From Raja brachyura (Eukaryota), in assembly GCA_963514005.1 (NCBI GenBank), contig OY740799.1:33232001-33296000 (forward strand): a stretch of DNA of 64,000 bases, given 5' to 3'. The translations under genes and the position numbers were made by a program. The notes under the pieces are model-generated. The model ran no database searches. It was not told the DNA's origin and saw only the letters and a program-made list of their open reading frames with translations. How positions within the stretch are numbered: position 1 is the stretch's first letter; each line of letters begins with the position of its first letter. Positions 1-26,900 of this stretch are shown one piece after another.

Positions 1-260
1 AGTCTTGAGATTCAAACTAGAATTGTGTTTTAATGCAATGCAAAGGAACGACAGTAATGCCCAAAGTATGTGCTGGAGTTGAAACACATACAAATATTAC
101 TGCTGAATGTAGTATGGATTGTATATTTGCAGTGACTATGTTGAAATATTATTCCACAACTTCTTTTAATTTGTGCAATATATGTTCATTTTGTTACTCC
201 TCTCTCAAATGTGTAATTCTTCAAGTTGAATGTAAAGGTCGTGTATGTATGTGTTTACAG

Positions 261-2991
261 AAAGAACTACACCAACAGCGACAACAACAACAGAATCTAC
301 CACCAGTCCCACAACTGGTGAGTGATAACTACTCTCAATGTAAACCCATGGGTTTTTATATCACAGCTAAGCTCATAAACATTATTTTCAGTTGCACTAC
401 TTTCCCTTCCTATCTTCAATTTCACTTCATCCATAACAGATGAGTGATCACCTCTGTCAGTATATACTCACTGGCTGTTGGATTTGGTTGTTCAATTAAA
501 ACTTCTACTCATCTTCAGTGAAAGTCTAATAATTTGACCTTTCCACTACAATTTCCAATAACAAGCATTGGTCTAAATATTGAATGAAGGGTCCTGAAAT
601 TTATTTCTGCAGACAATTATTAGAATCCTCTTCTTTAAATGATGGCAACTATGATGATCAGCCAGCCTGTGTGAGTCTCAATAAAGCATCTCTCATGGGT
701 AATTAAGCTATGTAATTCATAATAAAAGTGCAATGGTAGGTTTTCTGGTGATTGCCATAAATAAGTGGGTACACCACACTGAAATGCATTGAAGTCTTTG
801 AGGGAATGAAAACTGAGCAAAAATCGTGCAGGACTATACTATTTTGTTGCTGCTGCATCTCTACTCGTGATGGTTCTGCAGAGAAGAAAATAATTTTTCC
901 ATGTCTAAATTGTTTTCACATTTCTCAATAATTTCTCAGCATTACACTTGAAAGTTCCAAGTGATCAACAGTATGTTAAGTGCAGTTACCACACTTGCTC
1001 ACAAAATAATGTTCTATTGAAAGTATGGTTTCCTTGTGATGCAGATAAATCACCCAGCACATTATATTGCTGAATGGAGTATGGTTATCATTTTGAAGCC
1101 ATTTGCTGAAATTATGTTACACAATCATTTATCCGGCTAATTTTCTACTTCCTCAGTTGTGCCATTCATCGTTGAATGGTCATGAATGCTTTTACTTTCT
1201 TAAGAAACAATAACAGTATCAACCATAACTGAGTTTACCACCAGTCAGATAACTGGTGGGTGATGCCTTCATTCAATATTAATTCATGGATATTTTAAAG
1301 CAACTATCCTTTTAAGCACTGCAAGCTTGAACTTTATTGGCTTGCCACAATCGTTTTAATTTCAGCGCAGTAGAGTTCTATCCTTCTCCAGAATCTTAAG
1401 GGTTCACTCGAGGTTGGTGATATGGCACAGAACAGATCAAATATATCTCCTTCATCAACATTCGGAATTATTTCTGTATCAAGCACTGGAAATTTGGGTT
1501 GCCATACAGCCATACGAATAAAAAAGGAACACAACACACGATAGAATTTAACATAGACATCCCCACACAGCAGAATCAACGTTTCCCACTGTGAGGGAAG
1601 GCAATAAAGTTCAGCCATCTTCCTCTTTGTTTACCCGTGGTCGGGGGCCCCAATGTTCAGGCCCTCGCCGGGATGATCGGAACTCCGACGTCGGAATGGA
1701 GAACTCTCTCAGCGACTTGGAGTTCCGAACCGGCCACCTACTGGAGACCAGGGCTCCCGATGTCCACAGGCCGTGCTTGGCGGAGATTCACACTGGCGTC
1801 CTCGCCAAAGGGACCACCAGGACTCCGCGATGTTGTTCAGCATTGCCTGCGGCTAGAAGCTCCGCAACCATAGTTCTACGATGTTAAAACAGTAGGCCCA
1901 ATGCTCCGGAGCTTCATCAAACGATCCCCAGTAAGGAACAGACAGCTCCACTCAGAGGTGTTAATTCAGTGCTGCGTCGCTGTTGAAGCTCTGGTCGGTC
2001 TCCGGAAGGAACGGCCGCGCCAATCCAGTTTGTCTGCCGCGAGGAGTGGGCGAAGATGAGAATAGTCGCATCCTCGCCAGGAAGAGACTGAGAAAAGATT
2101 CCCCACCCCCCTACCCTGACCCACTACCCCACATAAAAAGACTAAGAATACCTCCAAAACATACTTTTAAACAGACTAAAAATAACAAAAAGATGAAAAA
2201 AAAAGACAGAATGCAAACAGAGGCTGCCTTCAAATGGCGCCCCCCTGTGGTAATGTAAATGTAATCATACAACTGAAATCTGAGATACCATATTGGAGAG
2301 AGATTAAAGACCAAATGTGATATACAAAACCAGCTGATTATCTGAAAGCTAAATTTACTCTTGGGTCCTAAAGCCATATGCGTAGTTGGAAAATGAGGTA
2401 CTGTAACTTACACTGAGTACTGAACTTTATTGGAAATGTGTTGGAGATACAAAGTGGAAACGTAGGGAACATTTAAATGACTGACATATAAAATCTCATA
2501 AATAACATATACTACAGTAAATCTGTTTTGGTCTCCACTCTGCTGTGGATCCTCCCTTTCCTTTTCTTGTATACTCACTGCCTATCCTGATTATTTTTAA
2601 GATTTTATTTGTTTCTTTGCAGTAACACTTTTTCCAGACATACCCCTTGTTCTTTCTTCTCCTTTCCTTCCATCTTTCAGTCACTATTTGGGTCACTCAA
2701 TCTCACCTGGTCTCCAGCCCATCACATCATCCCCTATTTCTCTGCACTGTAAATTTTGTTGCATTCTAAATTTTCCAGTACTTATAAAATAGAATCAGTC
2801 TCAAATGTTAATTCTTAACAGATGCTGCTTGACCTACCAAGTACTCCCAGTCATTTGTGCTTTCATTTTTCTTATGTCTGAAATCTGCTTGAGCGGTATA
2901 AGAATTGAGTTGACTTTGTGATTTGAATTTGTTTGTTATTTTCCAGAAGAAACATCAACTGTTACATCAACCAGCATTCCTTCCACAACAG
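261..2991 (+). CDS. PTS microexons, unit A copy 1 (before CysD)
   Basis: 261-317 (ERTTPTATTTTESTTSPTT), 1205-1255 (ETITVSTITEFTTSQIT, weak AAG acceptor), 2947-2991 (EETSTVTSTSIPSTT); all 3n long, phase 1, AG/GT-bounded. Confidence 0.75.
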
Positions 2992-5900
2992 GTAGCTGTT
3001 GGCTTTTTCAATATATATTTATTTTGCAACCTCAACTGATCACAATGAAAATCCATTTGTTTTCTTCTCTATCATCGTCATAAACATCAACGTGCACGGT
3101 GCCTTACAATGCTATGTACGACAGTGATCATAACTTCTACTGAAGTGTGGATGGCCGTTGGCTCGCTTGGAGCTAATCTGCCTTTTGACAGGTCTTGTTT
3201 TTGGTCCTGCAGTGGGTTCACTGCCCCCTCCTCACCTGGCAAACTAGGTGGGGGAGACGGTTTAGTCACCGACTATCCGACCATGGAGCAGGTAGCACGG
3301 GATTACATGGTACCCGTGGCGGGTGGTAATCCCCCCTATCTTCTCTACCTTTTTGATATATTAGACCCTGTTCCCTGTTCCCCATTTTTACTGTCATAAG
3401 TAAAATGTTCGGTCACTCACAATGGCAGCTACTTTTATCATCATGCGGAAATTTGAACTCCCTTCTTTATAAGAATATGATAGGTAACTTCTTTATTTGG
3501 GCATGCGAGGAAACTGTTTGGCCCATTGTGTCCTTTTCAACTTCCAACAGCACAATGTCATGTCCCCTGCTTATTTCCCTGTATTTCTACAACATATTCT
3601 CTTCCACATCCACTCTCCTTTGATTCTTTTGGTATTGGTCTATACAAAGGAATAATTTACAAGAGCCAATTAATCTACCAGCATGTCTCTGGGTGACAGG
3701 AGGAACTCAAGGAAGTACAGGGAGCCAATATGAGCTCCATACAAACAGCACCTAATATCAGGATTGAACTTGGATCTCTCAAGCTTTCAGGCAAAGGCAA
3801 GGCACAGCCTTCCACAGCTTGTTGAGAGTGGTCTTCTTTTCATTATAATCTCTTTCCTCCTTTAACTCTTGATTCTGTTTTATGAATTGACAGCAAACGT
3901 GTTCCTTTATCATATATTATCCTGGAGCAGCTACCTTTTTGCCATTTCCCTCTTGCCCACTAATTAAACTCTTCTGCATATATGTTATACCTTTTCACCA
4001 TATACAGTACGTAGCATGTTTCAAGGTGATATGGTGAGGCAACGCAACTACTCCAATAATGTTCTTCAATAGCACGCTGAGACCAACCCATCAAAGTGGA
4101 AAGAATATCCGGCTGTTAAAATCATGCAATAGTTAGTGCACAGCTGCAGTCAGCTGCCTGATAAGTGACATCTCACGTTTGTGCTTTATGCTTTTTCTCT
4201 ATTGTTCTGTTCTGCACTGGCAATGAATGTTTCCCTACTTGAAGTTGTATCTTAATTCAGATCAATCAACAGTTCCCCAAACATATTGTTATTATTCCCA
4301 TTTTACTGTTCCCATTTTCATTTAAACTGTAATTTGTAAGATTCATTTTGATGCACAACCATGTTTCTCAAATCTTGTTTTTTATATTTATGTTTATATT
4401 TTCCACTATGTAGTGTTTTTTTACAAGTTTGCCTTATGTTTTCTTTCTTTACATTACAGTGCCATACTGTTTGGGTGTATGGTCTCCTTGGTCTAATAAT
4501 GATACACCAACACCGTCATCTCCAAATGATTATGAATTGTTGATACCATATGGCACTCAATTGTGCCCATCTTCTTCTGATAAAATTACCACCATTCAGT
4601 GCCAATTTGCCAAACATCCTGAATGGCCACTAAGTGTATCGCCAGATGTTGTGACCTGCAATAAAGAGATAGGATTGATGTGCACATTCTCTGGATCTCC
4701 TTCTGGCCACTTTTGTAATGACTACAGAATTAGAGTTTGCTGCGAGCCAACTGAGACTACAACTGTCCCCACGACTACAACTGAGTCTACCACCAGTCCC
4801 ACGATTGGTGAGTGATACCTTCTCCAGTACTTGTTAACAGTCGTTTTAAAGGAAGGACAACTGTGTCCAAAGTATGTCCAGCTTGTGCTGGAATTGAACC
4901 AAATACAAATATTACTGCTCAATGTTGCGATGATTATAAATTTGCAGTGGCTTTTGTTGAAGTTATTCCACAACTTCTCTTTAATCAATATATGCTGATT
5001 TTGTTACTACACTTCCAAATGTGCCTTTCTTCGTTGAATATAAAAGACATGTATGCATTTGTTTACAGAAGAAACAACAACAACAACAACAACAGCTACG
5101 ACCACCACAGAATCTACCACCAGTCCTACAACTGGTAAGTGATATCTTATCTCAATGTGCACTCATAGTTTTTTTTTAATCACAGCTGAGCTCATACACA
5201 CACGTTCCCATCCTTGCTTCAAGTTTTGCAATTTCATGATCCCATTTTAGAGTCTGTGGGTTCAGTCTTGATGGTCCTCTGATGCTGGATAGAGGTAGTG
5301 CAGCACTGACAATACTGTGCTGTTCAGCTTGAGATTTTGAGCTGGGTTTGTGAGTGTGCTGTTGTGACTGCGGTATATTTTGTGGCCAATAGCAAAGAAC
5401 AGAAACATCTCTCAACTACCATGAATAATAACGATGATTACAACAAAATTTCTCAGGAAATATTTTTAAGTTCTATAGTTTATCGGATGTAGATATGAAT
5501 AAGTAGTTTCTGGTGTTCCCTATATTTCAGCTGTGACCATATTTTAATACAATTTCTTGCTGCAAGTCCTTTGCAAGATAGGAAGTATTGAAAGGAGTTT
5601 ATCTCGACTTTACACAATCTCTTTTGAAATAGTCCAATTACCACCTGCATTTGTCGGTCATTCAAAATCTACGATTCAACATGGATGATTTAATTGTCCA
5701 TGAATTTGTTTCTCTTTCGAAGAAACATCTACAACAACCAGCACAACTGAGTCCACAACCACTTCCACAACTGGTGGGTGGTGATATTTTCATTTGTAAA
5801 TCTTTTTAACACAAGCTCACCTATACATATACATACTATATCACATAATTTAAAACAAATGTAATGCCTTGGTAGACAAAAATGCTGGAGAAACTCAGCA

Positions 5901-8900
5901 GGTGCAGCAACATCTATGCAGCGAAGGATATAGGCAACGTTTCGGGCCGAAACCCTTCTTCAGACCCTTTCGGCCCGAAGCGTTGCCTATTTCCTTCACT
6001 CCATAGATGCTGCTGCACCCGCTGAGTTTCACCAACATTTTTGTCTACCTTCGATTTTCCAGCATCTACAGTTCCTTCGTAAATAAATGTAATGCCTTTA
6101 TTATTTTCCAGAAGAAACCACTCCCACGGTGACACCAAGCACCACCACCACCTACACAACAGGTGAGTGATCACCTCTGTCAGTAGCTTATTACCAGCCG
6201 TAACGTTCAGTCATTCAATTTCAACTTCTGCTTGCCTTCAGTTTAATCATTCTTCAACTTGCATGTAATGCTTTTATTTGCAGAAAAAACAACAATAACA
6301 ACGCCAGGGCCACCCACAACCACGTCTACCACCAGCCCCACAACTGGTGAGTAATGCATTTTATCAATCATTTTAACACAAATATGCTCACAGTACCACT
6401 TGCAGGTTGTGACAATGATGATCACTCTTGCCTTGTGCAACACAATTTTACCTCAGCAGCTCATGGGATGTTATCGAATTTCAAAGTCTTGAGATTCAAA
6501 CTAGAATTGTGTTTTAATGCAATGCAAAGGAACGACAGTAATGCCCAAAGTATGTGCTGGAGTTGAAACACATACAAATATTACTGGTGAATGTAGTATG
6601 GATTGTATATTTGCAGTGACTATGTTGAAATATTATTCCACAACTTCTTTTAATTTGTGCAATATATGTTCATTTTGTTACTCCTCTCTCAAATGTGTAA
6701 TTCTTCAAGTTGAATGTAAAGGCCGTGTATGTATGTGTTTACAGAAAGAACTACACCAACAGCGACAACAACAACAGAATCTACCACCAGTCCCACAACT
6801 GGTGAGTGATAACTACTCTCAATGTAAACCCATGGGTTTTTATATCACAGCTAAGCTCATAAACATTATTTTCAGTTGCACTACTTTCCCTTCCTTTCTT
6901 CAATTTCACTTCATCCATAACAGATGAGTGATCGCCTCTGTCAGTATATACTCACTGGCTGTTGGATTTGGTTGTTCAATTGAAACTTCTACTCATCTTC
7001 AGTGAAAGTCTAATAATTTGACCTTTCCACTACAATTTCCAATAACAAGCATTGGTCTAAATATTGAATGAAGGGTCCTGAAATTTATTTCTGCAGACAA
7101 TTATTAGAATCCTCTTCTTTAAATGATGGCTACTATGATGATCAGCCAGCCTGTGTGAGTCAATAAAGCATCTCTCATGGGTAATTAAGCTATGTAATTC
7201 ATAATAAAAGTGCAATGGTAGGTTTTCTGGTGATTGCCATAAATAAGTGGGTACACCACACTGAAATGCATTGAAGTCTTTGAGGGAATGAAAACTGAGC
7301 AAAAATCGTGCAGGACTATACTATTTTGTTGCTGCTGCATCTCCACTCGTGATGGTTCTGCAGAGAAGAAAATAATTTTTCCATGTCTAAATTGTTTTCA
7401 CATTTCTCAATAATTTCTCAGCATTACACTTGAAAGTTCCAAGTGATCAACAGTATGTTAAGTGCAGTTACCACGCTTGCTCACAAAATAATGTTCTATT
7501 GAAAGTATGATTTCCTTGTGATGCAGATAAATCACCCAGCACATTATATTGCTGAATGGAGTATGGTTATCATTTTGAAGCCATTTGCTGAAATTATGTT
7601 ACACAATCATTTATCCGGCTAATTTTCTACTTCCTCAGTTGTGCCATTCATCGTTGAATGGTCATGAATGCTTTTATTTTCTTAAGAAACAATAACAGTA
7701 TCAACCATAACTGAGTTTACCACCAGTCAGATAACTGGTGGGTGATGCCTTCATTCAATATTAATTCATGGATATTTTAAAGCAACTATCCTTTTAAGCA
7801 CTGCAAGCTTGAACTTTATTGGCTTGCCACAATCGTTTTAATTTCAGCGCAGTAGAGTTCTATCCTTCTCCAGAATCTTAAGGGTTCACTCGAGGTTGGT
7901 GATATGGCACAGAACAGATCAAATATATCTCCTTCATTAACATTCGGAATTATTTCTGTATCAAGCACTGGAAATTTGGGTTGCCATACAGCCATACGAA
8001 TAAAAAAGGAACACAACACACGATAGAATTTAACATAGACATCCCCACACAGCAGAATCAACGTTTCCCACTGTGAGGGAAGGCAATAAAGTTCAGCCAT
8101 CTTCCTCTTTGTTTACCCGTGGTCGGGGGCCCCAATGTTCAGGCCCTCGCCGGGATGATCGGAACTCCGACGTCGGAATGGAGAACTCTCTCAGCGACTT
8201 GGAGTTCCGAACCGGCCACCTACCGGAGACCAGGGCTCCCGATGTCCACAGGCCGTGCTTGGCGGAGATTCACACTGGCGTCCTCGCCAAAGGGACCACC
8301 AGGACTCCGCGATGTTGTTCAGCATTGCCTGCGGCTAGAAGCTCCGCAACCATAGTTCTACGATGTTAAAACAGTAGGCCCAATGCTCCGGAGCTTCATC
8401 AAACGATCCCCAGTAAGGAACAGACAGCTCCACTCAGAGGTGTTAATTCAGTGCTGCGTCGCTGTTGAAGCTCTGGTCGGTCTCCGGAAGGAACGGCCGC
8501 GCCAATCCAGTTTGTCTGCCGCGAGGAGTGGGCGAAGATGAGAATAGTCGCATCCTCGCCAGGAAGAGACTGAGAAAAGGTTCCCCACCCCCCTACCCTG
8601 ACCCACTACCCCACATAAAAAGACTAAGAATACCTCCAAAACATACTTTTAAACAGACTAAAAATAACAAAAAGATGAAAAAAAAAGACAGAATGCAAAC
8701 AGAGGCTGCCTTCAAATGGCGCCCCCTGTGGTAATGTAAATGTAATCATACAACTGAAATCTGAGATACCATATTGGAGAGAGATTAAAGACCAAATGTG
8801 ATATACAAACCAGCTGATTATCTGAAAGCTAAATTTACTCTTGGGTCCTAAAGCCATATGCGTAGTTGGAAAATGAGGTACTGTAACTTACACTGAGTAC

Positions 8901-11900
8901 TGAACTTTATTGGAAATGTGTTGGAGATACAAAGTGGAAACGTAGGGAACATTTAAATGACTGACATATAAAATCTCATAAATAACATATACTACAGTAA
9001 ATCTGTTTTGGTCTCCACTCTGCTGTGGACCCTCCCTTTCCTTTTCTTGTATATTCACTGCCTATCCTGATTATTTTTAAGATTTTATTTGTTTCTTTGC
9101 AGTAACACTTTTTCCAGACATACCCCTTGTTCTTTCTTCTCCTTTCCTTCCATCTTTCAGTCACTATTTGGGTCACTCAATCTCTCCTGGTCTCCAGCCC
9201 ATCACATCATCCCCTATTTCTCTGCACTGTAAATTTTGTTGCATTCTAAATTTTCCAGTACTTATAAAATAGAATCAGTCTCAAATGTTAATTCTTAACA
9301 GATGCTGCTTGACCTACCAAGTACTCCCAGTCATTTCTGCTTTCATTTTTCTTATGTCTGAAATCTGCTTGAGCGGTATAAGAATTGAGTTGACTTTGTG
9401 ATTTGAATTTGTTTGTTATTTTCCAGAAGAAACATCAACTGTTACATCAACCAGCATTCCTTCCACAACAGGTAGGTGTTGGCTTTTTCAATATATATAT
9501 ATATTTTGCAACCTCAACTGATCACAATGAAAATCCATTTGTTTTCTTCTCTATCATCGTCATCGTTGAAAACATCAACGTGCACGGTGCCTTACAATGC
9601 TATGTACGACAGTGATCATAACTTCTACTGAAGTGTGGATGGCCGTTGGCTCGCTTGGAGCTAATCTGCCTTTTGACAGGTCTTGTTTTTGGTCCTGCAG
9701 TGGGTTCACTGCCCCCTCCTCACCTGGCAAACTAGGTGGGGGAGACAGTTTAGTCACCGACTATCCGACCATGGAGCAGGTAGCACGGGATTACATGGTA
9801 CCCGTGGCGGGTGGTAATCCCCCCTATCTTCTCTACCTTTTTGATATATTAGACCCTGTTCCCTGTTCCCCATTTTTACTGTCATAAGTAAAATGTTCGG
9901 TCACTCACAATGGCAGCTACTTTTATCATCATGCAGATATTTGAACTCCCTTCTTTATAAGAATATGATAGGTAACTTCTTTATTTGGGCATGCGAGGAA
10001 ACTGTTTGGCCCATTGTGTCCTTTTCAACTTCCAACAGCACAATGTCATGTCCCCTGCTTATTTCCCTGTATTTCTACAACATATTCTCTTCCACATCCA
10101 CTCTCCTTTGATTCTTTTGGTATTGGTCTATACAAAGGAATAATTTACAAGAGCCAATTAATCTACCAGCATGTCTCTGGGTGACAGGAGGAACTCAAGG
10201 AAGTACAGGGAGCCAATATGAGCTCCATACAAACAGCACCTAATATCAGGATTGAACTTGGATCTCTCAAGCTTTCAGGCAAAGGCAAGGCACAGCCTTC
10301 CACAGCTTGTTGAGAGTGGTCTTCTTTTCATTATAATCTCTTTCCTCCTTTAACTCTTGATTCTGTTTTATGAATTGACAGCAAACGTGTTCCTTTATCA
10401 TATATTATCCTGGAGCAGCTACCTTTTTGCCATTTCCCTCTTGCCCACTAATTAAACTCTTCTGCATATATGTTATACCTTTTCACCATATACAGTACGT
10501 AGCATGTTTCAAGGTGATATGGTGAGGCAACGCAACTACTCCAATAATGTTCTTCAATAGCACGCTGAGACCAACCCATCAAAGTGGAAAGAATATCCGG
10601 CTGTTAAAATCATGCAATAGTTAGTGCACAGCTGCAGTCAGCTGCCTGATAAGTGACATCTCACGTTTGTGCTTTATGCTTTTTCTCTATTGTTCTGTTC
10701 TGCACTGACAATGAATGTTTCCCTACTTGAAGTTGTATCTTAATTCAGATCAATCAACAGTTCCCCAAACATATTGTTATTATTCCCATTTTACTGTTCC
10801 CATTTTCATTTAAACTGTAATTTGTAAGATTCATTTTGATGCACAACCATGTTTCTCAAATCTTGTTTTTTATATTTATGTTTATATTTTCCACTATGTA
10901 GTGTTTTTTTACAAGTTTGCCTTATGTTTTCTTTCTTTACATTACAGTGCCATACTGTTTGGGTGTATGGTCTCCTTGGTCTAATAATGATACACCAACA
11001 CCGTCATCTCCAAATGATTATGAATTGTTGATACCATATGGCACTCAATTGTGCCCATCTTCTTCTGATAAAATTACCACCATTCAGTGCCAATTTGCCA
11101 AACATCCTGAATGGCCACTAAGTGTATCGCCAGATGTTGTGACCTGCAATAAAGAGATAGGATTGATGTGCACATTCTCTGGATCTCCTTCTGGCCACTT
11201 TTGTAATGACTACAGAATTAGAGTTTGCTGCGAGCCAACTGAGACTACAACTGTCCCCACGACTACAACTGAGTCTACCACCAGTCCCACGACTGGTGAG
11301 TGATACCTTCTCCAGTACTTGTTAACAGTCGTTTTAAAGGAAGGACAACTGTGTCCAAAGTATGTCCAGCTTGTGCTGGAATTGAACCAAATACAAATAT
11401 TACTGCTCAATGTTGCGATGATTATAAATTTGCAGTGGCTTTTGTTGAAGTTATTCCACAACTTCTCTTTAATCAATATATGCTGATTTTGTTACTACAC
11501 TTCCAAATGTGCCTTTCTTCGTTGAATATAAAGGACATGTATGCATTTGTTTACAGAAGAAACAACAACAACAACAACAGCCACGACCACCACAGAATCT
11601 ACCACCAGTCCTACAACTGGTAAGTGATATCTTATCTCAATGTGCACTCATAGTTTTTTTTTATCACAGCTGAGCTCATACACACACGTTCCCATCCTTG
11701 CTTCAAGTTTCGCAATTTCATGATCCCATTTTAGAGTCTGTGGGTTCAGTCTTGATGGTCCTCTGATGCTGGATAGAGGTAGTGCAGCACTGACAATACT
11801 GTGCTGTTCAGCTTGAGATTTTGAGCTGGGTTTGTGAGTGTGCTGTTGTGACTGCGGTATATTTTGTGGCCAATAGCAAAGAACAGAAACATCTCTCAAC

Positions 11901-14900
11901 TACCATGAATAATAACGATGATTACAACAAAATTTCTCAGGAAATATTTTTAAGTTCTATAGTTTATCGGATGTAGATATGAATAAGTAGTTTCTGGTGT
12001 TCCCTACATTTCAGCTGTGACCATATTTTAATACAATTTCTTGCTGCAAGTCCTTTGCAAGATAGGAAGTATTGAAAGGAGTTTATCTCGACTTTACACA
12101 ATCTCTTTTGAAATAGTCCAATTACCACCTGCATTTGTCGGTCATTCAAAATCTACGATTCAACATGGATGATTTAATTGTCCATGAATTTGTTTCTCTT
12201 TCGAAGAAACATCTACAACAACCAGCACAACTGAGTCCACAACCACTTCCACAACTGGTGGGTGGTGATATTTTCATTTGTAAATCTTTTTAACACAAGC
12301 TCACCTATACATATACATACTATATCACATAATTTAAAACAAATGTAATGCCTTGGTAGACAAAAATGCTGGAGAAACTCAGCAGGTGCAGCAACATCTA
12401 TGCAGCGAAGGATATAGGCAACGTTTCGGGCCGAAACCCTTCTTCAGACCCTTTCGGCCCGAAGCGTTGCCTATTTCCTTCACTCCATAGATGCTGCTGC
12501 ACCCGCTGAGTTTCACCAACATTTTTGTCTACCTTCGATTTTCCAGCATCTACAGTTCCTTCGTAAATAAATGTAATGCCTTTATTATTTTCCAGAAGAA
12601 ACCACTCCCACGGTGACACCAAGCACCACCACCACCTACACAACAGGTGAGTGATCACCTCTGTCAGTAGCTTATTACCAGCCGTAACGTTCAGTCATTC
12701 AATTTCAACTTCTGCTTGCCTTCAGTTTAATCATTCTTCAACTTGCATGTAATGCTTTTATTTGCAGAAAAAACAACAATAACAACGCCAGGGCCACCCA
12801 CAACCACGTCTACCACCAGCCCCACAACTGGTGAGTAATGCATTTTATCAATCATTTTAACACAAATATGCTCACAGTACCACTTGCAGGTTGTGACAAT
12901 GATGATCACTCTTGCCTTGTGCAACACAATTTTACCTCAGCAGCTCATGGGATGTTATCGAATTTCAAAGTCTTGAGATTCAAACTAGAATTGTGTTTTA
13001 ATGCAATGCAAAGGAACGACAGTAATGCCCAAAGTATGTGCTGGAGTTGAAACACATACAAATATTACTGCTGAATGTAGTATGGATTGTATATTTGCAG
13101 TGACTATGTTGAAATATTATTCCACAACTTCTTTTAATTTGTGCAATATATGTTCATTTTGTTACTCCTCTCTCAAATGTGTAATTCTTCAAGTTGAATG
13201 TAAAGGCCGTGTATGTATGTGTTTACAGAAAGAACTACACCAACAGCGACAACAACAACAGAATCTACCACCAGTCCCACAACTGGTGAGTGATAACTAC
13301 TCTCAATGTAAACCCATGGGTTTTTATATCACAGCTAAGCTCATAAACATTATTTTCAGTTGCACTACTTTCCCTTCCTTTCTTCAATTTCACTTCATCC
13401 ATAACAGATGAGTGATCGCCTCTGTCAGTATATACTCACTGGCTGTTGGATTTGGTTGTTCAATTAAAACTTCTACTCATCTTCAGTGAAAGTCTAATAA
13501 TTTGACCTTTCCACTACAATTTCCAATAACAAGCATTGGTCTAAATATTGAATGAAGGGTCCTGAAATTTATTTCTGCAGACAATTATTAGAATCCTCTT
13601 CTTTAAATGGTGGCTACTATGATGATCAGCCAGCCTGTGTGAGTCTCAATAAAGCATCTCTCATGGGTAATTAAGCTATGTAATTCATAATAAAAGTGCA
13701 ATGGTAGGTTTTCTGGTGATTGCTATAAATAAGTGGGTACACCACACTGAAATGCATTGAAGTCTTTGAGGGAATGAAAACTGAGCAAAAATCGTGCAGG
13801 ACTATACTATTTTGTTGCTGCTGCATCTCCACTCGTGATGGTTCTGCAGAGAAGAAAATAATTTTTCCATGTCTAAATTGTTTTCACATTTCTCAATAAT
13901 TTCTCAGCATTACACTTGAAAGTTCCAAGTGATCAACAGTATGTTAAGTGCAGTTACCACGCTTGCTCACAAAATAATGTTCTATTGAAAGTATGATTTC
14001 CTTGTGATGCAGATAAATCACCCAGCACATTATATTGCTGAATGGAGTATGGTTATCATTTTGAAGCCATTTGCTGAAATTATGTTACACAATCATTTAT
14101 CCGGCTAATTTTCTACTTCCTCAGTTGTGCCATTCATCGTTGAATGGTCATGAATGCTTTTATTTTCTTAAGAAACAATAACAGTATCAACCATAACTGA
14201 GTTTACCACCAGTCAGATAACTGGTGGGTGATGCCTTCATTCAATATTAATTCATGGATATTTTAAAGCAACTATCCTTTTAAGCACTGCAAGCTTGAAC
14301 TTTATTGGCTTGCCACAATCGTTTTAATTTCAGCGCAGTAGAGTTCTATCCTTCTCCAGAATCTTAAGGGTTCACTCGAGGTTGGTGATATGGCACAGAA
14401 CAGATCAAATATATCTCCTTCATTAACATTCGGAATTATTTCTGTATCAAGCACTGGAAATTTGGGTTGCCATACAGCCATACGAATAAAAAAGGAACAC
14501 AACACACGATAGAATTTAACATAGACATCCCCACACAGCAGAATCAACGTTTCCCACTGTGAGGGAAGGCAATAAAGTTCAGCCATCTTCCTCTTTGTTT
14601 ACCCGTGGTCGGGGGCCCCAATGTTCAGGCCCTCGCCGGGATGATCGGAACTCCGACGTCGGAATGGAGAACTCTCTCAGCGACTTGGAGTTCCGAACCG
14701 GCCACCTACCGGAGACCAGGGCTCCCGATGTCCACAGGCCGTGCTTGGCGGAGATTCACACTGGCGTCCTCGCCAAAGGGACCACCAGGACTCTGCGATG
14801 TTGTTCAGCATTGCCTGCGGCTAGAAGCTCCGCAACCATAGTTCTACGATGTTAAAACAGTAGGCCCAATGCTCCGGAGCTTCATCAAACGATCCCCAGT

Positions 14901-17900
14901 AAGGAACAGACAGCTCCACTCAGAGGTGTTAATTCAGTGCTGCGTCGCTGTTGAAGCTCTGGTCGGTCTCCGGAAGGAACGGCCGCGCCAATCCAGTTTG
15001 TCTGCCGCGAGGAGTGGGCGAGGATGAGAATAGTCGCATCCTCGCCAGGAAGAGACTGAGAAAAGGTTCCCCCCCCCCTACCCTGACCCACTACCCCACA
15101 TAAAAAGACTAAGAATACCTCCAAAACATACTTTTAAACAGACTAAAAATAACAAAAAGATGAAAAAAAAAGACAGAATGCAAACAGAGGCTGCCTTCAA
15201 ATGGCGCCCCCTGTGGTAATGTAAATGTAATCATACAACTGAAATCTGAGATACCATATTGGAGAGAGATTAAAGACCAAATGTGATATACAAAACCAGC
15301 TGATTATCTGAAAGCTAAATGTACTCTTGGGTCCTAAAGCCATATGCGTAGTTGGAAAATGAGGTACTGTAACTTACACTGAGTACTGAACTTTATTGGA
15401 AATGTGTTGGAGATACAAAGTGGAAACGTAGGGAACATTTAAATGACTGACATATAAAATCTCATAAATAACATATACTACAGTAAATCTGTTTTGGTCT
15501 CCACTCTGCTGTGGACCCTCCCTTTCCTTTTCTTGTATACTCACTGCCTATCCTGATTATTTTTAAGATTTTATTTGTTTCTTTGCAGTAACACTTTTTC
15601 CAGACATACCCCTTGTTCTTTCTTCTCCTTTCCTTCCATCTTTCAGTCACTATTTGGGTCACTCAATCTCTCCTGGTCTCCAGCCCATCACATCATCCCC
15701 TATTTCTCTGCACTGTAAATTTTGTTGCTTTCTAAATTTTCCAGTACTTATAAAATAGAATCAGTCTCAAATGTTAATTCTTAACAGATGCTGCTTGACC
15801 TACCAAGTACTCCCAGTCATTTGTGCTTTCATTTTTCTTATGTCTGAAATCTGCTTGAGCGGTATAAGAATTGAGTTGACTTTGTGATTTGAATTTGTTT
15901 GTTATTTTCCAGAAGAAACATCAACTGTTACATCAACCAGCATTCCTTCCACAACAGGTAGGTGTTGGCTTTTTCAATATATATATATTTTGCAACCTCA
16001 ACTGATCACAATGAAAATCCATTTGTTTTCTTCTCTATCATCGTCATCGTTGAAAACATCAACGTGCACGGTGCCTTACAATGCTATGTACGACAGTGAT
16101 CATAACTTCTACTGAAGTGTGGATGGCCGTTGGCTCGCTTGGAGCTAATCTGCCTTTTGACAGGTCTTGTTTTTGGTCCTGCAGTGGGTTCACTGCCCCC
16201 TCCTCACCTGGCAAACTAGGTGGGGGAGACAGTTTAGTCACCGACTATCCGACCATGGAGCAGGTAGCACGGGATTACATGGTACCCGTGGCGGGTGGTA
16301 ATCCCCCCTATCTTCTCTACCTTTTTGATATATTAGACCCTGTTCCCTGTTCCCCATTTTTACTCCATAAGTAAAATGTTCGGTCACTCACAATGGCAGC
16401 TACTTTTATCATCATGCGGAAATTTGAACTCCCTTCTTTATAAGAATATGATAGGTAACTTCTTTATTTGGGCATGCGAGGAAACTGTTTGGCCCATTGT
16501 GTCCTTTTCAACTTCCAACAGCACAATGTCATGTCCCCTGCTTATTTCCCTGTATTTCTACAACATATTCTCTTCCACATCCACTCTCCTTTGATTCTTT
16601 TGGTATTGGTCTATACAAAGGAATAATTTACAAGAGCCAATTAATCTACCAGCATGTCTCTGGGTGACAGGAGGAACTCAAGGAAGTACAGGGAGCCAAT
16701 ATAAGCTCCATACAAACAGCACCTAATATCAGGATTGAACTTGGACCTCTCAAGCTTTCAGGCAAAGGCAAGGCACAGCCTTCCACAGCTTGTTGAGAGT
16801 GGTCTTCTTTTCATTATAATCTCTTTCCTCCTTTAACTCTTGATTCTGTTTTATGAATTGACAGCAAACGTGTTCCTTTATCATATATTATCCTGGAGCA
16901 GCTACCTTTTTGCCATTTCCCCCTTGCCCACTAATTAAACTCTTCTGCATATATGTTATACCTTTTCACCATATACAGTACGTAGCATGTTTCAAGGTGA
17001 TATGGTGAGGCAACGCAACTACTCCAATAATGTTCTTCAATAGCACGCTGAGACCAACCCATCAAGTGGAAAGAATATCCGGCTGTTAAAATCATGCAAT
17101 AGTTAGTGCACAGCTGCAGTCAGCTGCCTGATAAGTGACATCTCACGTTTGTGCTTTATGCTTTTTCCCTATTGTTCTGTTCTGCACTGGCAATGAATGT
17201 TTCCCTACTTGAAGTTGTATCTTAATTCAGATCAATCAACAGTTCCCCAAACATATTGTTATTATTCCCATTTTACTGTTCCCATTTTCATTTAAACTGT
17301 AATTTGTAAGATTCATTTTGATGCACAACCATGTTTCTCAAATCTTGTTTTTTATATTTATGTTTATATTTTCCACTATGTAGTGTTTTTTTACAAGTTT
17401 GCCTTATGTTTTCTTTCTTTACATTACAGTGCCATACTGTTTGGGTGTATGGTCTCCTTGGTCTAATAATGATACACCAACACCGTCATCTCCAAATGAT
17501 TATGAATTGTTGATACCATATGGCACTCAATTGTGCCCATCTTCTTCTGATAAAATTACCACCATTCAGTGCCAATTTGCCAAACATCCTGAATGGCCAC
17601 TAAGTGTATCGCCAGATCTTGTGACCTGCAATAAAGAGATAGGATTGATGTGCACATTCTCTGGATCTCCTTCTGGCCACTTTTGTAATGACTACAGAAT
17701 TAGAGTTTGCTGCGAGCCAACTGAGACTACAACTGTCCCCACGACTACAACTGAGTCTACCACCAGTCCCACGACTGGTGAGTGATACCTTCTCCAGTAC
17801 TTGTTAACAGTCGTTTTAAAGGAAGGACAACTGTGTCCAAAGTATGTCCAGCTTGTGCTGGAATTGAACCAAATACAAATATTACTGCTCAATGTTGCGA

Positions 17901-20900
17901 TGATTATAAATTTGCAGTGGCTTTTGTTGAAGTTATTCCACAACATCTTTTAATTTATGCAATATATGCTGATTTTGTTACTACTCTCCCAAATGTGCCT
18001 TTCTTCGTTGAATATGAAGGACATGTATGCATTTGTTTACAGAAGAAACAACAACAACAACAGAGACAACCACCACTGAGTCTACCACCAGTCGCACGAC
18101 TGGTGAGTGATACCTTCTCCAGTACTTGTTAACAGTCATTTTAAAGGACGGACAACAATGTCCAAAGTATGTCCAGCTTGTGCTGGACGTACAAATTATA
18201 ACCACAAAGAGTTGAACCACATACAAATGTTACTGCTGAATGCCTTGTTGATTATAAATTTGCAGTGGCTTTTGTTGTAGTTATTCCACAACTTCTTTTA
18301 ATTTATGTAATATATGCTGATTTTGTTACTACTCTCCCAAATGTGCCTTTCTTCAAGTTGAATATAAAGGACATGTATGCATTTGTTTACAGAAGAAACA
18401 ACAACAACAACCACAGCCACGACCACAACAGAATCTACCACCAGTCCAACAACCACTTCCACAACTGGTGGGTGGTGATATTTTTATTTGCAAATCTTTT
18501 TACAAAAGCTCCCCAATACATATACATATAATTTTAATTCAAAACAAATATAATGCCTTTATTATTTTCCAGAAGAAACAACTCCCACGGTGCCACCAAG
18601 CACCACCACCACCTACACAACAGGTGAGTGATCATCTCTGTCAGTAGGTTATTACCAGCCGTAACGTTCAGTCACTCGATTTCAACTTCAGCTTGCCCTC
18701 ACTTGAATCATTCTTCAAGTTGCATGTAATGCTTTTATTTGCAGAAAAAACAGAGCCAACCACAACCGCGTCTACCACCAGTCCCACAACTGGTGAGTAA
18801 TGCATTTTATCAATCATTTTAACACAAATATGCTCAAATACAGTACCACTCGCAGCTTGTGACAATGATGATCACTCTTGCCTTGTGCGGCACAATTTTA
18901 CATCAGCAGCTCATGCGATGTAATCGAATTTCAAAGTCTTGAGATTCAAACTAGAATAGTGCTTTAAAGCAATGCAAAGGAACGACAGTAATGCCCAAAG
19001 TATGTGCTGGAGTTGAAACACATACAAATATTACTGCTGAATGTAGTATGGATTGTATATTTACAGTGATTATGTTGAAATATTATTGCACAATTTTTAA
19101 TTTGTGTAATATATGTTAATTTTGTTACTCCTCTCTCAAATGTGTAATTCTTCAAGTTGAATGTAAAGGCCGTGTATGTATGTGTTTACAGAAAAAACTA
19201 CAACAACAGCGACGACAACAACAGAATCTACCACCAGTCCCACAACTGGTGAGTGATAACTACTCTCAATGTAAACCCATGGGTTTTTATATCACAGCTT
19301 AGCTCATAAACATCATTTTCAGTTGCACTACTTTCCCTTCCTTTCTTCAATTTCACTTCATCCATATCAGGTGAGTGATCGCCTCTGTCAGTACGAACGC
19401 ACTGGCTGTTGGGTTTGGTTGTTCAATTAAAACTTCATCTCATCCTAAGTAAAAGTCGAATAATTTGCTGAAATTATTTTTTTCACAATCATTTATCGGG
19501 TTAATTTTCTACTGCCTCAGTTGTGCCATTCATCAAGTTGAATGGTCATGAATGCTTTTACTTGCTTAAGGAACAATAACACAGTCCAGCATAACTGAGT
19601 TTACCGCCAGTCACATAACTGGTGGGTGATGCCTTCATTCAATATTAATTCATGGATATTTTAAAGCAACTATCCTTTTAAGCACTTTTAAGCTTGAACT
19701 TTATTGGCTTGCCATAATCGTTTCAATTTCAGTGCAGTAGAGTTCTACCCTTCTCCACAATCCTGAGGGTTAACTCGAATATGACACAGAACAGATCAAA
19801 GATATCTCCTTCCTTAACATTCAGAATTATTTCTGTATCAAGCACCAAAGATATATTTTCAAATCATTTACCTTTGTTAACAAATTAAAAAAATTATTTC
19901 AGATTTTAAGTTGCAAAAGAAAGTTTTGATGAGACTTCATAACCAGAAGTTTTGTAAATGTAATCATACAACTGAAATCTGAGACACCATATTGGAGAGA
20001 GATTATAGACCAAATGTTATATACACAACCAGCTGATTATCTGAAACAGTTAAATTTACTCCTGGGTCCCAAAGCCATATGCGTAGTTGGAAGATGAGGC
20101 ACTGTAACTTACACTGAGTACTGAACTTTATTGGAACTGTGTTGGAGATACAAAGTGGAAATGTAGGGAACATTTAAATGACAGACACTTTAATTCTCAT
20201 AATTAATATATACTCCAGTAAATCTGTTTTGGTCTCGACTTTGCTGTGGACCTTCCCTTCCCTTTTCTTGTATACTCACTGCCTTTCCTGATTATGTTTT
20301 ACATTTTATTTGTTTCTTTGCAGTAACACATTTTCCAGACATGCCCCTTGTTCTTTCTTCTCCTTTCCTTGCATCTTTCAGTCACCATTTGGGTCACTCA
20401 ATCTCTCCTGGTCTCCAGCCCGTCACATCATCCCCTATTTCTCTGCACTGTAAATTTTGTTTCATTCTAAATTTTCCAGTATTTATAAAATAGAATCAGT
20501 CTCAAATGTTAATTCTTAACAGATGCTGCTTGACCTACCAAGTACTCCCAGTCATTTCTGCTTTCATTTTTCTTATGTCTGAAATCTGATTGAGCGGTAT
20601 AAGAATTGTGTTGACTTTGTGATTTGAATTTGTTTGTTATTTTCCAGAAGTTATTTTCCAGTTTTTCAATATATATTTATTTTGCAACCTCAACTGATCA
20701 CAATGAAAATCCATTTGTTTTCTTCTCTATCATCGTCATCGTTGAAAACATCAATGTGCACGGTGCCTTACAATGCTATGTACGGCAGTGATCACAACTT
20801 CTACTGAAGTGTGGATTGCCGTTGGCTCGCTGGGAGCTAATCTGCCTTTTGACAGGTCTTGTTTTTGGTCCTGCAGGGGGTTCACTGCCCCCTTCTCACC

Positions 20901-23900
20901 TGGCAAATTTAGTCGCCGACTATCGGACCTTGGAGCAGGTAGCACATGGTATCCGTGGCGCTGGAACTCCCCCTGTCCTTCTCTAACGTTTTGATATATT
21001 AGACCCTGTTCCCTGTTCCCTGTCCCCCATTTTTACTTTCATAAGTAAAATGGCCAGTCGCTCACAATGGCAGCTACTTTTATCATCATGCGGGAATTTG
21101 AACTAATTTCTTTATAAGAATATGATAGGTAACTTCTTTATTTGGGCATGAAAGGAGGTGGTTTTGCCCACTGGGTCCTTTTCAACTTCCAACAGTACAA
21201 TGTCATGTCCCCTGCTTATTTCCCTGTAACTCTCCAACATATTCTCTCCCACATCCACTCTCCTTTGATTCTTTTGGTATTGGCCCATGCAAATGGATAA
21301 TTTACAAGAGCCAATTAATCTACCAGCATGTTTCTGGGTGACAGGAGGAACTCAAGGAAGTACAGGGAGCCATTATATGCTCCATACACACAGCACCGAA
21401 TATCAGGATTGAACTTGGATCTCTCAAGCTTTCAGGCAAAGGCGAGGCATAGCCTACCACAGCTTATTGAAAGTGGTCTTCTTTTCATTATAATCCCTTT
21501 CCTGCTTTAACTCTTGGTTCTGTTTAATGAATTGACAGCAAACGTGTTCCTTTATCATATATTATCCTGGAGCAGCTACCTTTTTGCCATTTCCCTCTTG
21601 CCCACCAATTAATCTCTTCTGCATATATGATATATCTTTTCACCATATACAGTACGTAGCATGTTTAAAGGTGATATGGTGAGGCAGCGCAACTACTCCA
21701 ATAATGTTCTTCAATAGCACGCTGAGACCAACTCATGAAAGTGGGAAGAATATCCGCCTGTTAAAATCATGCAATAGTTAGTGCACAGCTGCAGTCAGCT
21801 GCCTGATAAGTGACCTCGCGTTTGTGCTTTATGCTTTTTCCCCATTGTTCTGTTCTGCACTTGCAATTACTGTTTCCCTGTCTGATACTTGAGGTTGTAT
21901 GTCAATTCAGATCAATCAACAGTTCCCCAAACATATTATTATTATTCCCGTTTTACTGTTCCCACTTTTTTTTAAACTGTAATTTGGAAGATTCATGTTG
22001 ATGCACAACCATGTTTCTCTAATCTTGTGTTTTATATTTATGTTTATATTTTCCACTTTGTATTGTTTTATACAAGTTTGCCTTATGTTTTCTTTCTTTA
22101 CATTACAGTGCCAGACTGTTTGGGTGTATGGTCTCATTGGCATAGTAAACATACACCAACACCGTCATCTCCAAATGATTATGAATTGTTGAACACATAT
22201 GGCCCTACATTTTGCCCATCTCCTTCCGATAAAATTACCACCATTCAGTGCCAATTTGCCAACAATCCTGAATGGCCACTAAGTGTATCGCCAGATCATG
22301 TGACCTGCAATGTAGACGTCGGATTGATCTGCACGTTCTCTGGATCTCCTTCTGGCCACTTTTGTAATGACTACAGAATTAGAGTTTGCTGCGAGCCAAC
22401 TGGGACTACAACTGTCCCCACGACTACAACTGAGTCTACCACCAGTCCCAAGACTGGTGAGTGATACCTTCTCCAGTACCTGTTAACAGTCGTTTTAAAG
22501 GAAGGACAACAATGTCCAAAGTATGTCCAGCTTGTGCTGGAATTGAACCAAATACAAATGTTACTGCTGAATGTTGCGATGATTATAAATTTGCAGTGGC
22601 TTTTGTTGAAGTTATTCCACAACTTCTCTTTAATCAATATATGCTGATTTTGTTACTACACTCCCAAATGTGCCTTTCTTCGTTGAATATAAAGGACATG
22701 TATGCATTTGTTTACAGAAGAAACAACAACAACAACAACTACGACCACCACAGAATCTACCACCAGTCCTACAACTGGTAAGTGATAACTTATCTCAATG
22801 TACACTCATGGGTTTTTTTTATCACAGCTGAGCTCATACACACATGTTCCCATCCTTGCTTCAAGTTTTGCAATTTCAGCTCAGTAGTTCATGATCCCAT
22901 TTCAGAGTCTGTGGGTCAGTCGTGATGGTCCTCTGATGCAGGATAGGGATAGTGCAGCATTGCCAATACTGTGCTATTCAGCATGAGATTTTGAGCTGTG
23001 TTTGTGAATGTGCTGCCGTGACTGAGGTATATCTTATGGCCAAATTACAGAAAATTACAGAAAAAACATGAATAATAACAATTATTGCAACAACATTTCT
23101 CAGAATATATTTTTAAGCTTTTTAGTTTGTACAGTGAAGATATGAATAAGTAGGTTAAGGTGTTCCCTACATTTCAGCTGTGACCATATTTTAGTACAAT
23201 TTCAGCTCAATAGATAATGAGCTGGGTTTGTTCAATATAAGTTGATTTTGTTACTACTCACTCAAACGAGCCTCTCGTTGTGGGATAACTTCCCTCAATG
23301 TGCACTCATTATTTTGTTATCACTGTTGAGCTCATATACATCATACACTCATGTTCAGTGGTAGGGCTTTATCCTCCTTGCATCAAGTTTGGCAATTTCA
23401 GCTCAGTCATTCATGGTCCCATTTCAGAGTCTGTTTGTTCAGTCTTGATGGTCCTCTGGTGCATGATAGGGGTAGTGCGGCACTGCCGATTATATGCAAA
23501 TCTGCTTCAGATTTTGAGCTGGGTTTGTAAATGTACTGTTGTGACAGCAGTATATCTTGTGGCCAATGGCAAAGAACAGAAAAGTCTCTCCACTGCTCTG
23601 AATAATAGCAATAATTACAGCAACATTTCTCAGAAAATGTTTTTTAGCTGTATAGTTTATTCAGTGAGGATATGAATAAGTACAGTGGCTTGCAAAAGTT
23701 TTCATACCCCTTGAACTTTTCCACATTTTGTCACGTTACAACCACAAACGTAAATGTATTTTATTAGGATTTTACGTGATAGACCAACACAAAGTGGCGC
23801 ATAATTGTGAAGTTGAAGGAAAATTATACGAGGTTTTAAAATTTTTTTACAAATAAAAAACTGAAAAGTGTGGCGTGCAAAAGTATTCAGCCCCCTTTAC

Positions 23901-26900
23901 TCTGATACCCCTAAATAAAATCTAGTGCAACCAATTGCCTTCAGAAGTCACCTAATTAGTAAATAGAGTCCACTTGTGTGTAATCTAATCTCAGTATAAA
24001 TACAGCTGTTCTGTGAAGGTCTCAGAGGTTTGTTAGAGAACATTAGTGAACAAACAGCTTCATGAAGCCCAAGGAACGCACCAGACAGGTCAGGGATAAA
24101 GTTGTGGAGAAGTTTAAAGCAGGGTTAGGTTATAAAAAAATATCCCAAACTTTGAACATCTCACGGAGCACTGTTCAATCCATCATCCGAAAATAGAAAG
24201 AGTATGGTACAACTGCAAACCTACCAAGACATGGCCATCCACCTAAACTGACAGGCCGGGCAAGGAGAGCATTGATAAGAGACGCAGCCAAGAGGCCCAT
24301 GGTAACTCTGGAGGAGCTGCAGAGATCCACAGCTCAGGTGGGAGAATCTGTCCACAGGACAACTATTAGTCGTGCACTCCACTAATCGGGCCTTTATGGA
24401 AGAGTGGCAAGAAGAAAGCCATTGTTGAAACAAAGCCATAAGAAGTCCCGTTTGCAGTTTTCCACAAGCCATGTGGGGGACACAGTAAACATGTGGAGGA
24501 AGGTTACACAAAATGCTGGAGAAACTCAGCGGGTGCAGCAACATCTAAGGAGCGAAGGAGATAGGCGACGTTTTGGGTCGGGACCCTTCTTCAGAAGGTG
24601 CTCTGGTCTGATGAGAACAAAATTGAAGGTTTTGGCCTAAATGCAAAACGCTATGTGTGGCGGAAACCTAACACAGCACATCACCCTGAACACACCATCC
24701 CCACTGTGAAACATGGTGGTGGCAGCGTCATGCTGTGGGGATGCTTTTCTTCAGCAGGGACAGGGAAGCTGGTCAGAGTTGATGGGAAGATGGATAGAGC
24801 CAAATACAGGGCAATCTTGGAAGAAATTCTGCTAGAGTCTGCAAAAGACTTGAGACTGGGGCGGAGGTTCACCTTCCAGCAGGACAACGACCCTAAACAT
24901 ACAGCCAGAGCTACAATGGAATGGTTTAGATCAAAGCATATTCATGTGTTAGAATGGCCCAGTCAAAGTCCAGACCTAAATCCAATTGAGAATCTCTGGC
25001 AAGACTTGAAAATTGCTGTTCACAGACGCTCTCCATCCAATCTGACTAAGCTTGAGCTATTTTGCAAAGAAGAATGGGCAAAAATTTCAGTCTCTAGATG
25101 TGCAAAGCTGGTAGAGACATACCCCAAAAGCCTTGCAGCTGTAATTGCAGCGAAAGGTGGTTCTAAAAAGTATTGACTCAGGGGGGCAGAATACTTTTGC
25201 ATGCCACACTTTTCAGTTTTTTATTTGTAATAAAATTTGGAAACCATGTATCATTTTCCTTCCGCTTCACAATTATGCAGCACTTTGTGTTGGTCTATCA
25301 CATAAAATCCCAATATAATACATTTACGTTTGTGGTTGTTACGTGACAAAATGTGGAAAAGTTCAAGGGTTATGAAAACTTTTGCAAGCCACTGTATGTC
25401 ACGGTGTTCCCTACATTTCAGCTGTGACCGTATTTCAGTACAATTTCTTGCAGTAAGACCTTTGCTAAATGGGAAGTAATTAAATGTGTTTATTTCCACT
25501 TTACTCTTTTGTAATTGGGAAATATCTGCTGAATTTGCTGGTCATTCATAATCTTGTATTCAAGATGAATGAATTATTTGTCCATTAACTTGTTTTTCTT
25601 TTGAAGAAACATCTACAACAACCAGCACAACTGAGGCCACAACCACTTCCACAACTGGTGAGTAATGATATTTTCAAGAATCATTTGCGATTCATTTTAA
25701 TACAGTACAAGCCTCTGCCAGACTACATATGCACATACTGAGTATCTATGTATATACAGATAATTTTGCTTCTAAACAAAAGTAAATCCTTTGTTATTTT
25801 CCATTAAAAAACAGTTACCACGGTGACACCAAGCACCATCACCTCCACACCAGGTGATTGAATGCTTCTGTCGGTATGTTATTAGCAGCCATTAGGTTCA
25901 GACATTTTTTTTTATGTAATGGTTTTAATTGCAGAAGAAACAACAACAACAACAACAACAGAGACAACCACCACTGAGTCTACCACCAGTCCCACGACTG
26001 GTGAGTGATACCTTCTCCAGTACTTGTTAACAGTCATTTTAAAGGACGGACAACAATGTCCAAAGTATGTCCAGCTTGTGCTGGACGTACAAATTAGAAC
26101 CACAAAGAGTTCAACCACATACAAATGTTACTGCTGAATGCCTTGTTGATTATAAATTTGCAGTGGCTTTTGTTGTAGTTATTCCACAACTTCTTTTAAT
26201 TTATGTAATATATGCTGATTTTGTTACTACTCTCCCAAATTCTTCAAGTTGAATATAAAGGACATGTATGCATTTGTTTACAGAAGAAACAACAACACCA
26301 ACAACAACAGCCACGACCACAACAGAAACAACTCCCACGGTGCCACCAAGCACCACCACCACCTACACAACAGGTGAGTGATCACCTCTGTCAGTAGGTT
26401 ATTACCAGCTGTAACGTTCGGTCATTCGATTTCAACTTCTGCTTGCCCTCACTTGAATCATTCTTCAAGTTGCATGTAATGCTTTTATTTGCAGAAAAAA
26501 CAACAACAGAGCCAACCACAACCGCGTCTACCACCAGCCCCACAACTGGTGAGTAATGCATTTTACCAATCATTTTAACACAAATATGCTCAAATACAGT
26601 ATCACTCGCAGGTTGTGACAAGGAAGTACAAGGAGCCATTATAAGCTCCATACAAACAGCACCGAATATCAGGATTGAACTTGGATCTCTCAAGCTTTCA
26701 GGCAAAGGCGAGGCATAGCCTTCCACAGCTTATTGAGAGTGGTCTTCTTTTCATTATAATCTCTTTCCTGCTTTAACTCTTGGTTCTGTTTAATGAATTG
26801 ACAGCAAACGTGTTCCTTTATCATATATTATCCTGGAGCAGCTACCTTTTTGCCATTTCCCTCTTGCCCACCAATTAATCTCTTCTGCATATATGATATA

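Follow-up and report, generated by a model that had tools for sequence, protein, structure and literature searches.

Two old CysD types in the tandem repeats of one mucin gene of Raja brachyura, with suggestive evidence of adaptive change

The closest described relatives of the domain studied here are the CysD domains of the mucins MUC2, MUC5AC and MUC5B (Pfam family PF13330; PDB entries 8oer, 8ov0, 6tm6 and 8s03). Mammalian CysD has ten cysteines in five disulfides (PMC3195396, PMC11207715), two bound calcium ions are reported for MUC2 CysD1 (PMC7599080), and the inter-domain contacts of that domain are made by the loop enclosed by the cysteines that align to C74 and C85 (PMC7599080, PMC11912381). 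It has already been described that one gene can contain several CysD types (PMC11344006) and that surfaces vary widely on the shared fold (PMC11933400, PMC11912381); both features, along with self-dimerisation of CysD, are known from sources that include PMC7599080, PMC4948705 and PMC13345508. Here, we examined a mucin gene in a 64-kb stretch of the 2.7-Gb genome of Raja brachyura (contig OY740799.1, positions 33,232,001 to 33,296,000; hereafter the window), together with 140 kb upstream and 40 kb downstream. The gene is a new member of this known mucin family, and its CysD exons fall into two types, A and B, whose dimorphism is real and old.

In the likely conversion between its tandem copies, the locus resembles the R and S paralogs of ATP1A1 in Leptodactylus. 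For these, non-allelic gene conversion is reported to homogenise the tandem copies, although certain amino-acid differences are maintained across species; 12 substitutions are retained in most of five species, and their function was demonstrated by protein engineering (10.1101/2020.08.04.234435). Unlike ATP1A1, the mucin is known from sequence, its units are exons of one gene, its diverged patches assort separately among organisms, and one close relative appears without type B. In the literature searched, which most subscription papers fall outside, we found no codon-level selection test (dN/dS) on CysD domains or types.

The gene contains 14 CysD exons in tandem, ten copies of type A first and then four of type B. 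Each unit (about 6.48 kb for type A and 5.27 kb for type B) holds a single CysD exon and several short exons with a high content of proline, threonine and serine (PTS), and the units are ~99% identical within each block. Profile matches identified C8, VWD, TIL, VWD and C8 exons upstream of the CysD block, and VWD, C8 (just below the cut-off) and Cys_knot exons downstream. The gene order as detected is thus C8-VWD-TIL-VWD-C8-[PTS/CysD]x14-VWD-C8-cystine knot, in which the first VWD and the signal peptide were not pinned down. Because domain exons flank the PTS/CysD block in this order, the gene is a gel-forming mucin of the MUC2/MUC5 type, assigned by domain order. Like the CysDs of MUC2 and MUC5, those described here lie among PTS stretches in a VWD...VWD-CK mucin. 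However, where the MUC2/MUC5 genes have one large central exon, this gene has one CysD per exon, in intron-containing units of 5–6.5 kb.

All the CysD exons in the window are on the plus strand. The last ~3 of the ten type-A units occupy 1..18119 (the seven others are spread over 43 kb directly before the window, upstream of it), with CysD exons at 4460..4807 (the eighth copy; a 96-codon CysD followed by a 20-codon PTS tail), 10948..11295 (the ninth) and 17430..17777 (the tenth, in which codon 63 begins with the base of type B, V to L). The four type-B units (99.2–99.7% identical) occupy 21353..42428, with CysD exons at 22109..22456, 27375..27722, 32641..32988 and 37907..38254, the last carrying A-type bases at codons 68, 98 and 114. 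Every one of the 14 exons has an uninterrupted frame and intact splice sites, and W7 and W10 of the WxxW near the N-terminus are present in 14 of 14 copies. Pfam PF13330 (Mucin2_WxxW) matched type A with 55.2 bits and type B with 57.6 (cut-off 22.4), over the full profile length, and the best sequence matches among solved structures were mucin CysDs. The predicted model of type A (pLDDT 75, pTM 0.60) agreed: the top eight Foldseek matches were all mucin CysD-containing chains (TM 0.54–0.66). The predicted type-B model shows the same strands, and the fold is a small beta-sandwich like that of the solved CysDs. On the other hand, both types have eight cysteines per exon instead of the mammalian ten. 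This pattern is common to the aligned cores of shark CysDs and of other CysDs of this genome; we read it as a lineage variant, and it limits the likeness to the mammalian subtype.

A protein search with type A restricted to near-equal length gave no match, and a search at longer lengths gave only two, both shark mucins. These are the closest named proteins, P0001 of Mustelus asterias (49% identical over the domain) and P0002 of Scyliorhinus torazame (43%), and by themselves they would make a cartilaginous fish the likely host. In P0001, too, a pair of near-identical CysDs precedes a last one that differs. Both shark sequences are far too diverged for codon tests and have fewer CysD copies in the annotated protein.

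We compared the type-A exon at 4460-4807 with the type-B exon at 22109-22456. Each is 348 nt long with AG/GT ends and phase 1-1, and the codon frames start at 4462 and 22111. Over the 96 codons up to CCEP, 19 codons change the amino acid and only two (39 and 75) carry silent changes alone, exactly as an earlier note on this DNA had counted. The changed patches that it listed (SPWSNND>SHWHSKH, IPYGTQL>NTYGPTF, KH>NN and VVTCNKEI>HVTCNVDV) were all present, and the eight cysteines and both WxxW tryptophans are retained in A and B, as it had said. The PTS tail contributes three further amino-acid changes. At the level of bases, the core differs at 27 positions, scored as 23.5 nonsynonymous (N) and 3.5 synonymous (S), or 24 N : 3 S when a relative is used to resolve codon 28 by hand; the codon count understates silent change because multi-hit codons conceal silent base differences. 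The changed codons cluster (nine adjacent pairs, P = 0.0016), and none falls at the 21 positions that are invariant in ten other CysDs of this genome (P = 0.006 under neutrality).

Does this imbalance exceed what neutral change would give? A pairwise dN/dS (omega) significantly above 1 had been set beforehand as the test, and the earlier note had proposed diversifying selection on the CysD surfaces, possibly under microbial pressure. With codon models of the MG94 type, run with our own scripts rather than codeml, the core pair was not significantly above 1: the maximum-likelihood omega was 2.0 (P = 0.23) with a free transition/transversion parameter (kappa) and 2.7–2.8 (P = 0.07–0.08) with kappa fixed at 2.5. 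For the whole exon, omega was 2.6–3.3 (P = 0.025–0.09). In a neutral simulation with the transition bias of the introns, two or fewer silent-only codons among 27 changes had a P of 0.054, and on the four distinct core sequences the M2a model improved on M1a with P = 0.087 (kappa free) or 0.026 (kappa 2). When the 21 invariant positions were removed, omega of the pair was 3.6 (24:3, one-sided P = 0.015) or 2.6 (23:4, P = 0.046). Diversifying selection is plausible but borderline, with nominal significance only outside the invariant core or when relatives are pooled, and the independent data described below are weaker.

The flanking introns served as a yardstick. Of 2664 aligned intron sites, 193 are different between the two types (0.072; transitions/transversions 0.97), and the values for single regions range from 0.03 to 0.13. 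The divergence at N sites (pN 0.11) is higher than this (Fisher P = 0.027), and that at S sites (pS ~0.04–0.05) is lower, not significantly so (P = 0.20). Six codons were hit more than once against 2.3 expected (P = 0.010), with nine adjacent differing base pairs. For several double changes (codons 11, 28, 33, 63, 68 and 70), another copy or organism carries a single-step intermediate; therefore, multi-base mutation in one hit is disfavoured at those codons.

Next to the genome itself, relatives were represented by contigs from five of 21 runs (organisms B, C, D, E and F), and the statements made here cover the contigs listed. The contig comparison omits differences near contig ends, and contigs can drop variants; hand counts covered 17 of 18 differences in one long contig of organism E and 23 of 24 in the other, all those of three contigs of F, and part of those of C and D. 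The codon 28–39 patch occurs in both states in this genome, as it does in C, D and F, and the two E contigs differ at five of its sites. Since the patch is dimorphic in C, D, F and E, both CysD types predate these species. Organism F has both types, including a B-like contig with all 11 B-diagnostic bases in codons 28–52. Furthermore, F contig ends pass from 4460 directly into upstream PTS exon sequence, one matching the short PTS exon at 2947..2991 (plus strand), whose end is thus joined to 4460, and another matching exon ends 317/6801/13285/19248/42814. These joins indicate that the CysD exon is spliced in F, in a run that we take by guess to be RNA. Assembly or sequencing error was rejected as the origin of the two types, as both base sets occur in independent runs of other organisms and the 14 exons are open and spliceable.

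The relatives also point to exchange between the blocks. At 4590 and 4592, window A and B have the same bases, which are unlike those of every listed contig of D, E and F, and at 4697 they have the same base, unlike that of every listed contig of C, D and E; the longest run identical between A and B is 63 nt (P = 0.026). From these species-specific shared bases and the identical run, we infer short conversion tracts between the blocks. The C74–C85 loop is the same in A and B, yet different in organism E, as expected from within-species homogenisation. The patches assort separately among organisms; in C, a 5' patch of type A is combined with middle patches that are B-like. The single exon contig of organism B is A-type at 25 of 27 diagnostic sites, and its overlapping flank is identical to B intron; it hints at a loss of type B. 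Patchy gene conversion, which the earlier note had named as a possible explanation of the low silent count, likely occurred in the form of these tracts, but it leaves the N:S ratio unexplained, the ratio being almost unchanged within diverged patches. As the sole cause it was rejected: silent sites make up 25% of the diverged-patch sites, and omega there is similar.

When all visible distinct core changes in six organisms were pooled, the hand count gave 48–49 N : 9–10 S, with an omega of 1.7–1.9 (P 0.04–0.08 at kappa 2; 0.11–0.18 at kappa 1). Outside the invariant core, the pooled omega was 2.2–2.5 (one-sided P 0.005–0.013; 0.02–0.04 at kappa 1). Codon 68 alone underwent five N changes and encodes six amino acids, K, I, V, L, T and N (P = 0.035 for such a maximum). 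With the exception of this codon, a fixed set of hypervariable codons was unsupported.

Other CysD copies of the genome provide a wider comparison. A genome-wide search for the family gave 85 matches, and three single-exon sets were analysed; a two-exon cluster on contig C33, which was detected only in part, three singletons and two broken copies were left out of the codon tests. In the nine-copy array at loci L021–L023, the two main types differ by 17–18 N : 3 S, with a pS of 0.04 against 0.08–0.12 in the introns. The pN of this array (0.08–0.09) is no higher than the flanking intron divergence (0.07–0.17 in the alignable comparisons). The CysDs of this genome are generally fast-evolving, and the A/B pair is at the high end. 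Positive selection on CysD throughout the genome was unsupported by the other arrays and the pooled models.

Several results weigh against positive selection. The discovery pair was chosen because it looked extreme, and its signal is suggestive; the whole-domain tests are not significant with kappa 1. Changes outside the discovery pair number 24–25 N : 6–7 S (omega 1.2–1.5, P 0.27–0.43), independent changes outside the core give an omega of 1.6–1.9 (P 0.11–0.20), and they strike the discovery codons at chance level (6 of 24, expected 6.1). The pair of contigs from organism E, at 16 N : 6 S, has an omega of 0.9–1.0. Among the other arrays, omega was 1.18 overall in the nine-copy set, 0.38 in a 20-copy set and 0.63 in a gene pair; pooled with the A/B set, four sets in all, they gave 0.9–1.0, with M2a no better than M1a (P = 0.35 or 0.18). 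The intron yardstick is itself patchy, with 1–25 differences per 100 sites, and 5–8% of intron windows of equal size reach the divergence of the N sites. A history without positive selection is possible, if less likely than not: constraint would hold about a quarter of the domain and the remainder would drift neutrally, conversion would cluster the changes, and the low silent count would be noise in a pair picked as extreme. M1a, with 27% invariant and 73% neutral sites, describes the four pooled arrays no worse than M2a, and pair tests at P 0.05–0.23, independent changes that are neither significant nor focused on the same codons, the near-unity omega of the E pair, and the intron-level pN at L021–L023 all agree with drift. 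Yet such a model expects a whole-domain omega of ~0.75, compared with the 1.7–1.9 observed in the pooled set and 1.2–1.5 in the independent one, and it must also accommodate the pooled test outside the core and the five changes of codon 68.

Two further explanations are less probable. Selection may maintain two functionally different CysD types against conversion, as in Leptodactylus ATP1A1, including the two binding specificities that the earlier note had imagined. The codon 28–39 patch is dimorphic here and in four of five other organisms while neighbouring tracts are homogenised, F retains a contig with the complete set of B-diagnostic bases over codons 28–52, and the chemistry of the changes is coherent, with the loss of a glycosylation sequon and the gain of histidines. 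However, the A-type exon contig of organism B hints otherwise, the patches assort separately, and the C74–C85 loop, the contact loop according to PMC11912381 and PMC7599080, is identical in A and B. Moreover, diverged patches resist gene conversion even in the absence of selection. We consider this explanation quite unlikely. As for the method, omega could be inflated if silent sites were constrained (for example, by splicing signals) or if multi-base mutations were counted several times. In both two-type arrays pS lies below the intron divergence, and the excess of multi-hit codons and the nine adjacent differing base pairs speak for inflation. On the other hand, the deficit of pS in the A/B pair is not significant, pN itself exceeds the intron level there, and for most double changes an intermediate is present in another copy or organism. 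We take inflation to be very improbable.

The account that we favour, and to which we give an about even chance, is that of two old CysD versions with a fixed core and a fast surface, evolving by block-wise concerted evolution with patchy conversion and modest positive selection. An early duplication would have given rise to two families of units, and unequal crossing-over would keep each block homogeneous. Short conversion tracts would equalise codons ~40–50 and 76–96 between the blocks, the other patches remaining apart, and modest positive selection would lift amino-acid change, outside the core, to ~2 times the rate of silent change. A contribution of positive selection is likely, the excess being borderline significant.

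What might the changes do to the domain? Seventeen of the 19 lie outside predicted strands (P = 0.014; 0.056 among non-invariant positions). Type A has an N-glycosylation sequon at N13 and two histidines, and type B is without the sequon and has five histidines, gained at 9, 11, 14 and 63. D23, E25, D87 and Y88 are invariant, and N12 and D14 are altered in B. N12 and D14 align with positions of MUC2 CysD1 that we take to be calcium ligands. With the sequon lost, N12 and D14 changed and histidines gained, type B likely differs in its pH or metal dependence, as judged from the residues involved, and in the C-terminal third of the repeat region, sticking and cross-linking would then depend on pH or metal in another way than in the rest. 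A stronger version, which we regard as unlikely, holds that each chain carries two chemically different CysD stickers, calcium- and glycan-bearing in the first ten and histidine-rich in the last four, and that selection holds them apart across species against conversion while driving new surface changes.

Other features of the gene and its surroundings were recorded. Within the units, a further short PTS exon lies downstream of the CysD exon at 5069..5134 (plus strand), one of several per unit. The PTS exon at 2947-2991 and its upstream copies have two donor sequences, GTAGCT and GTAGGT, each in five of the ten A units, a difference that could influence inclusion of the exon. A DDE_3 (Tc1-like) transposase frame of 203 codons is intronic in the first and fourth type-B units (24565-25173 and 40363-40974, plus strand); from the identity of the units, it is likely present in all four, amplified together with the unit. 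Downstream, also on the plus strand, an open frame at 44675..44995 contains the first exon of the C-terminal VWD (D4; PF00094, 54 bits), and another at 50864..51499 contains the C8 exon of D4 (PF08742, 22.8 bits against a cut-off of 23.7). In the latter, ~110 residues are inserted in frame, the greater part being 6.2 copies of a 36-bp Gly/Ser/Pro/Asn repeat, with CSS motifs repeated at the edges of the insertion; both shark homologs are without it. Upstream of the mucin gene, ~138–127 kb before the start of the window, lies a 5.2 kb tandem duplication with 99% identity (L001).

On the same contig, the region at 30.66–33.27 Mb (L019–L030) holds further CysD loci, including the nine-copy array of two or three types and a homogeneous array of 19 copies, and this cluster suggests an expanded mucin locus. 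In three copies on the plus strand (L021 7495-7788 and 9338-9631; L022 5680-5973), the last cysteine of the CC pair is replaced by tyrosine, and the same copies have an extra cysteine in the loop after the second cysteine, so that disulfide rewiring is possible. Contig C33 carries, at 18.56–18.73 Mb (L031–L040), a large tandem array of WxxW-family domains split across two exons.

The two types bear on the question of which partners the CysD domains of gel-forming mucins have and for what reason their surfaces vary. The evidence of adaptive evolution is suggestive, and variable surfaces and multiple types per gene were already known; the CysD types give the impression of being tunable and dispensable, and not strictly maintained. 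Two natural variants that are 80% identical, within one protein and across related species, nevertheless make a handy pair for studying the part of surface patches in calcium binding, pH response and self-association. If the two stickers were indeed kept apart by selection, the pair would be a natural probe of the CysD residues that set mucus cross-linking or microbial binding.

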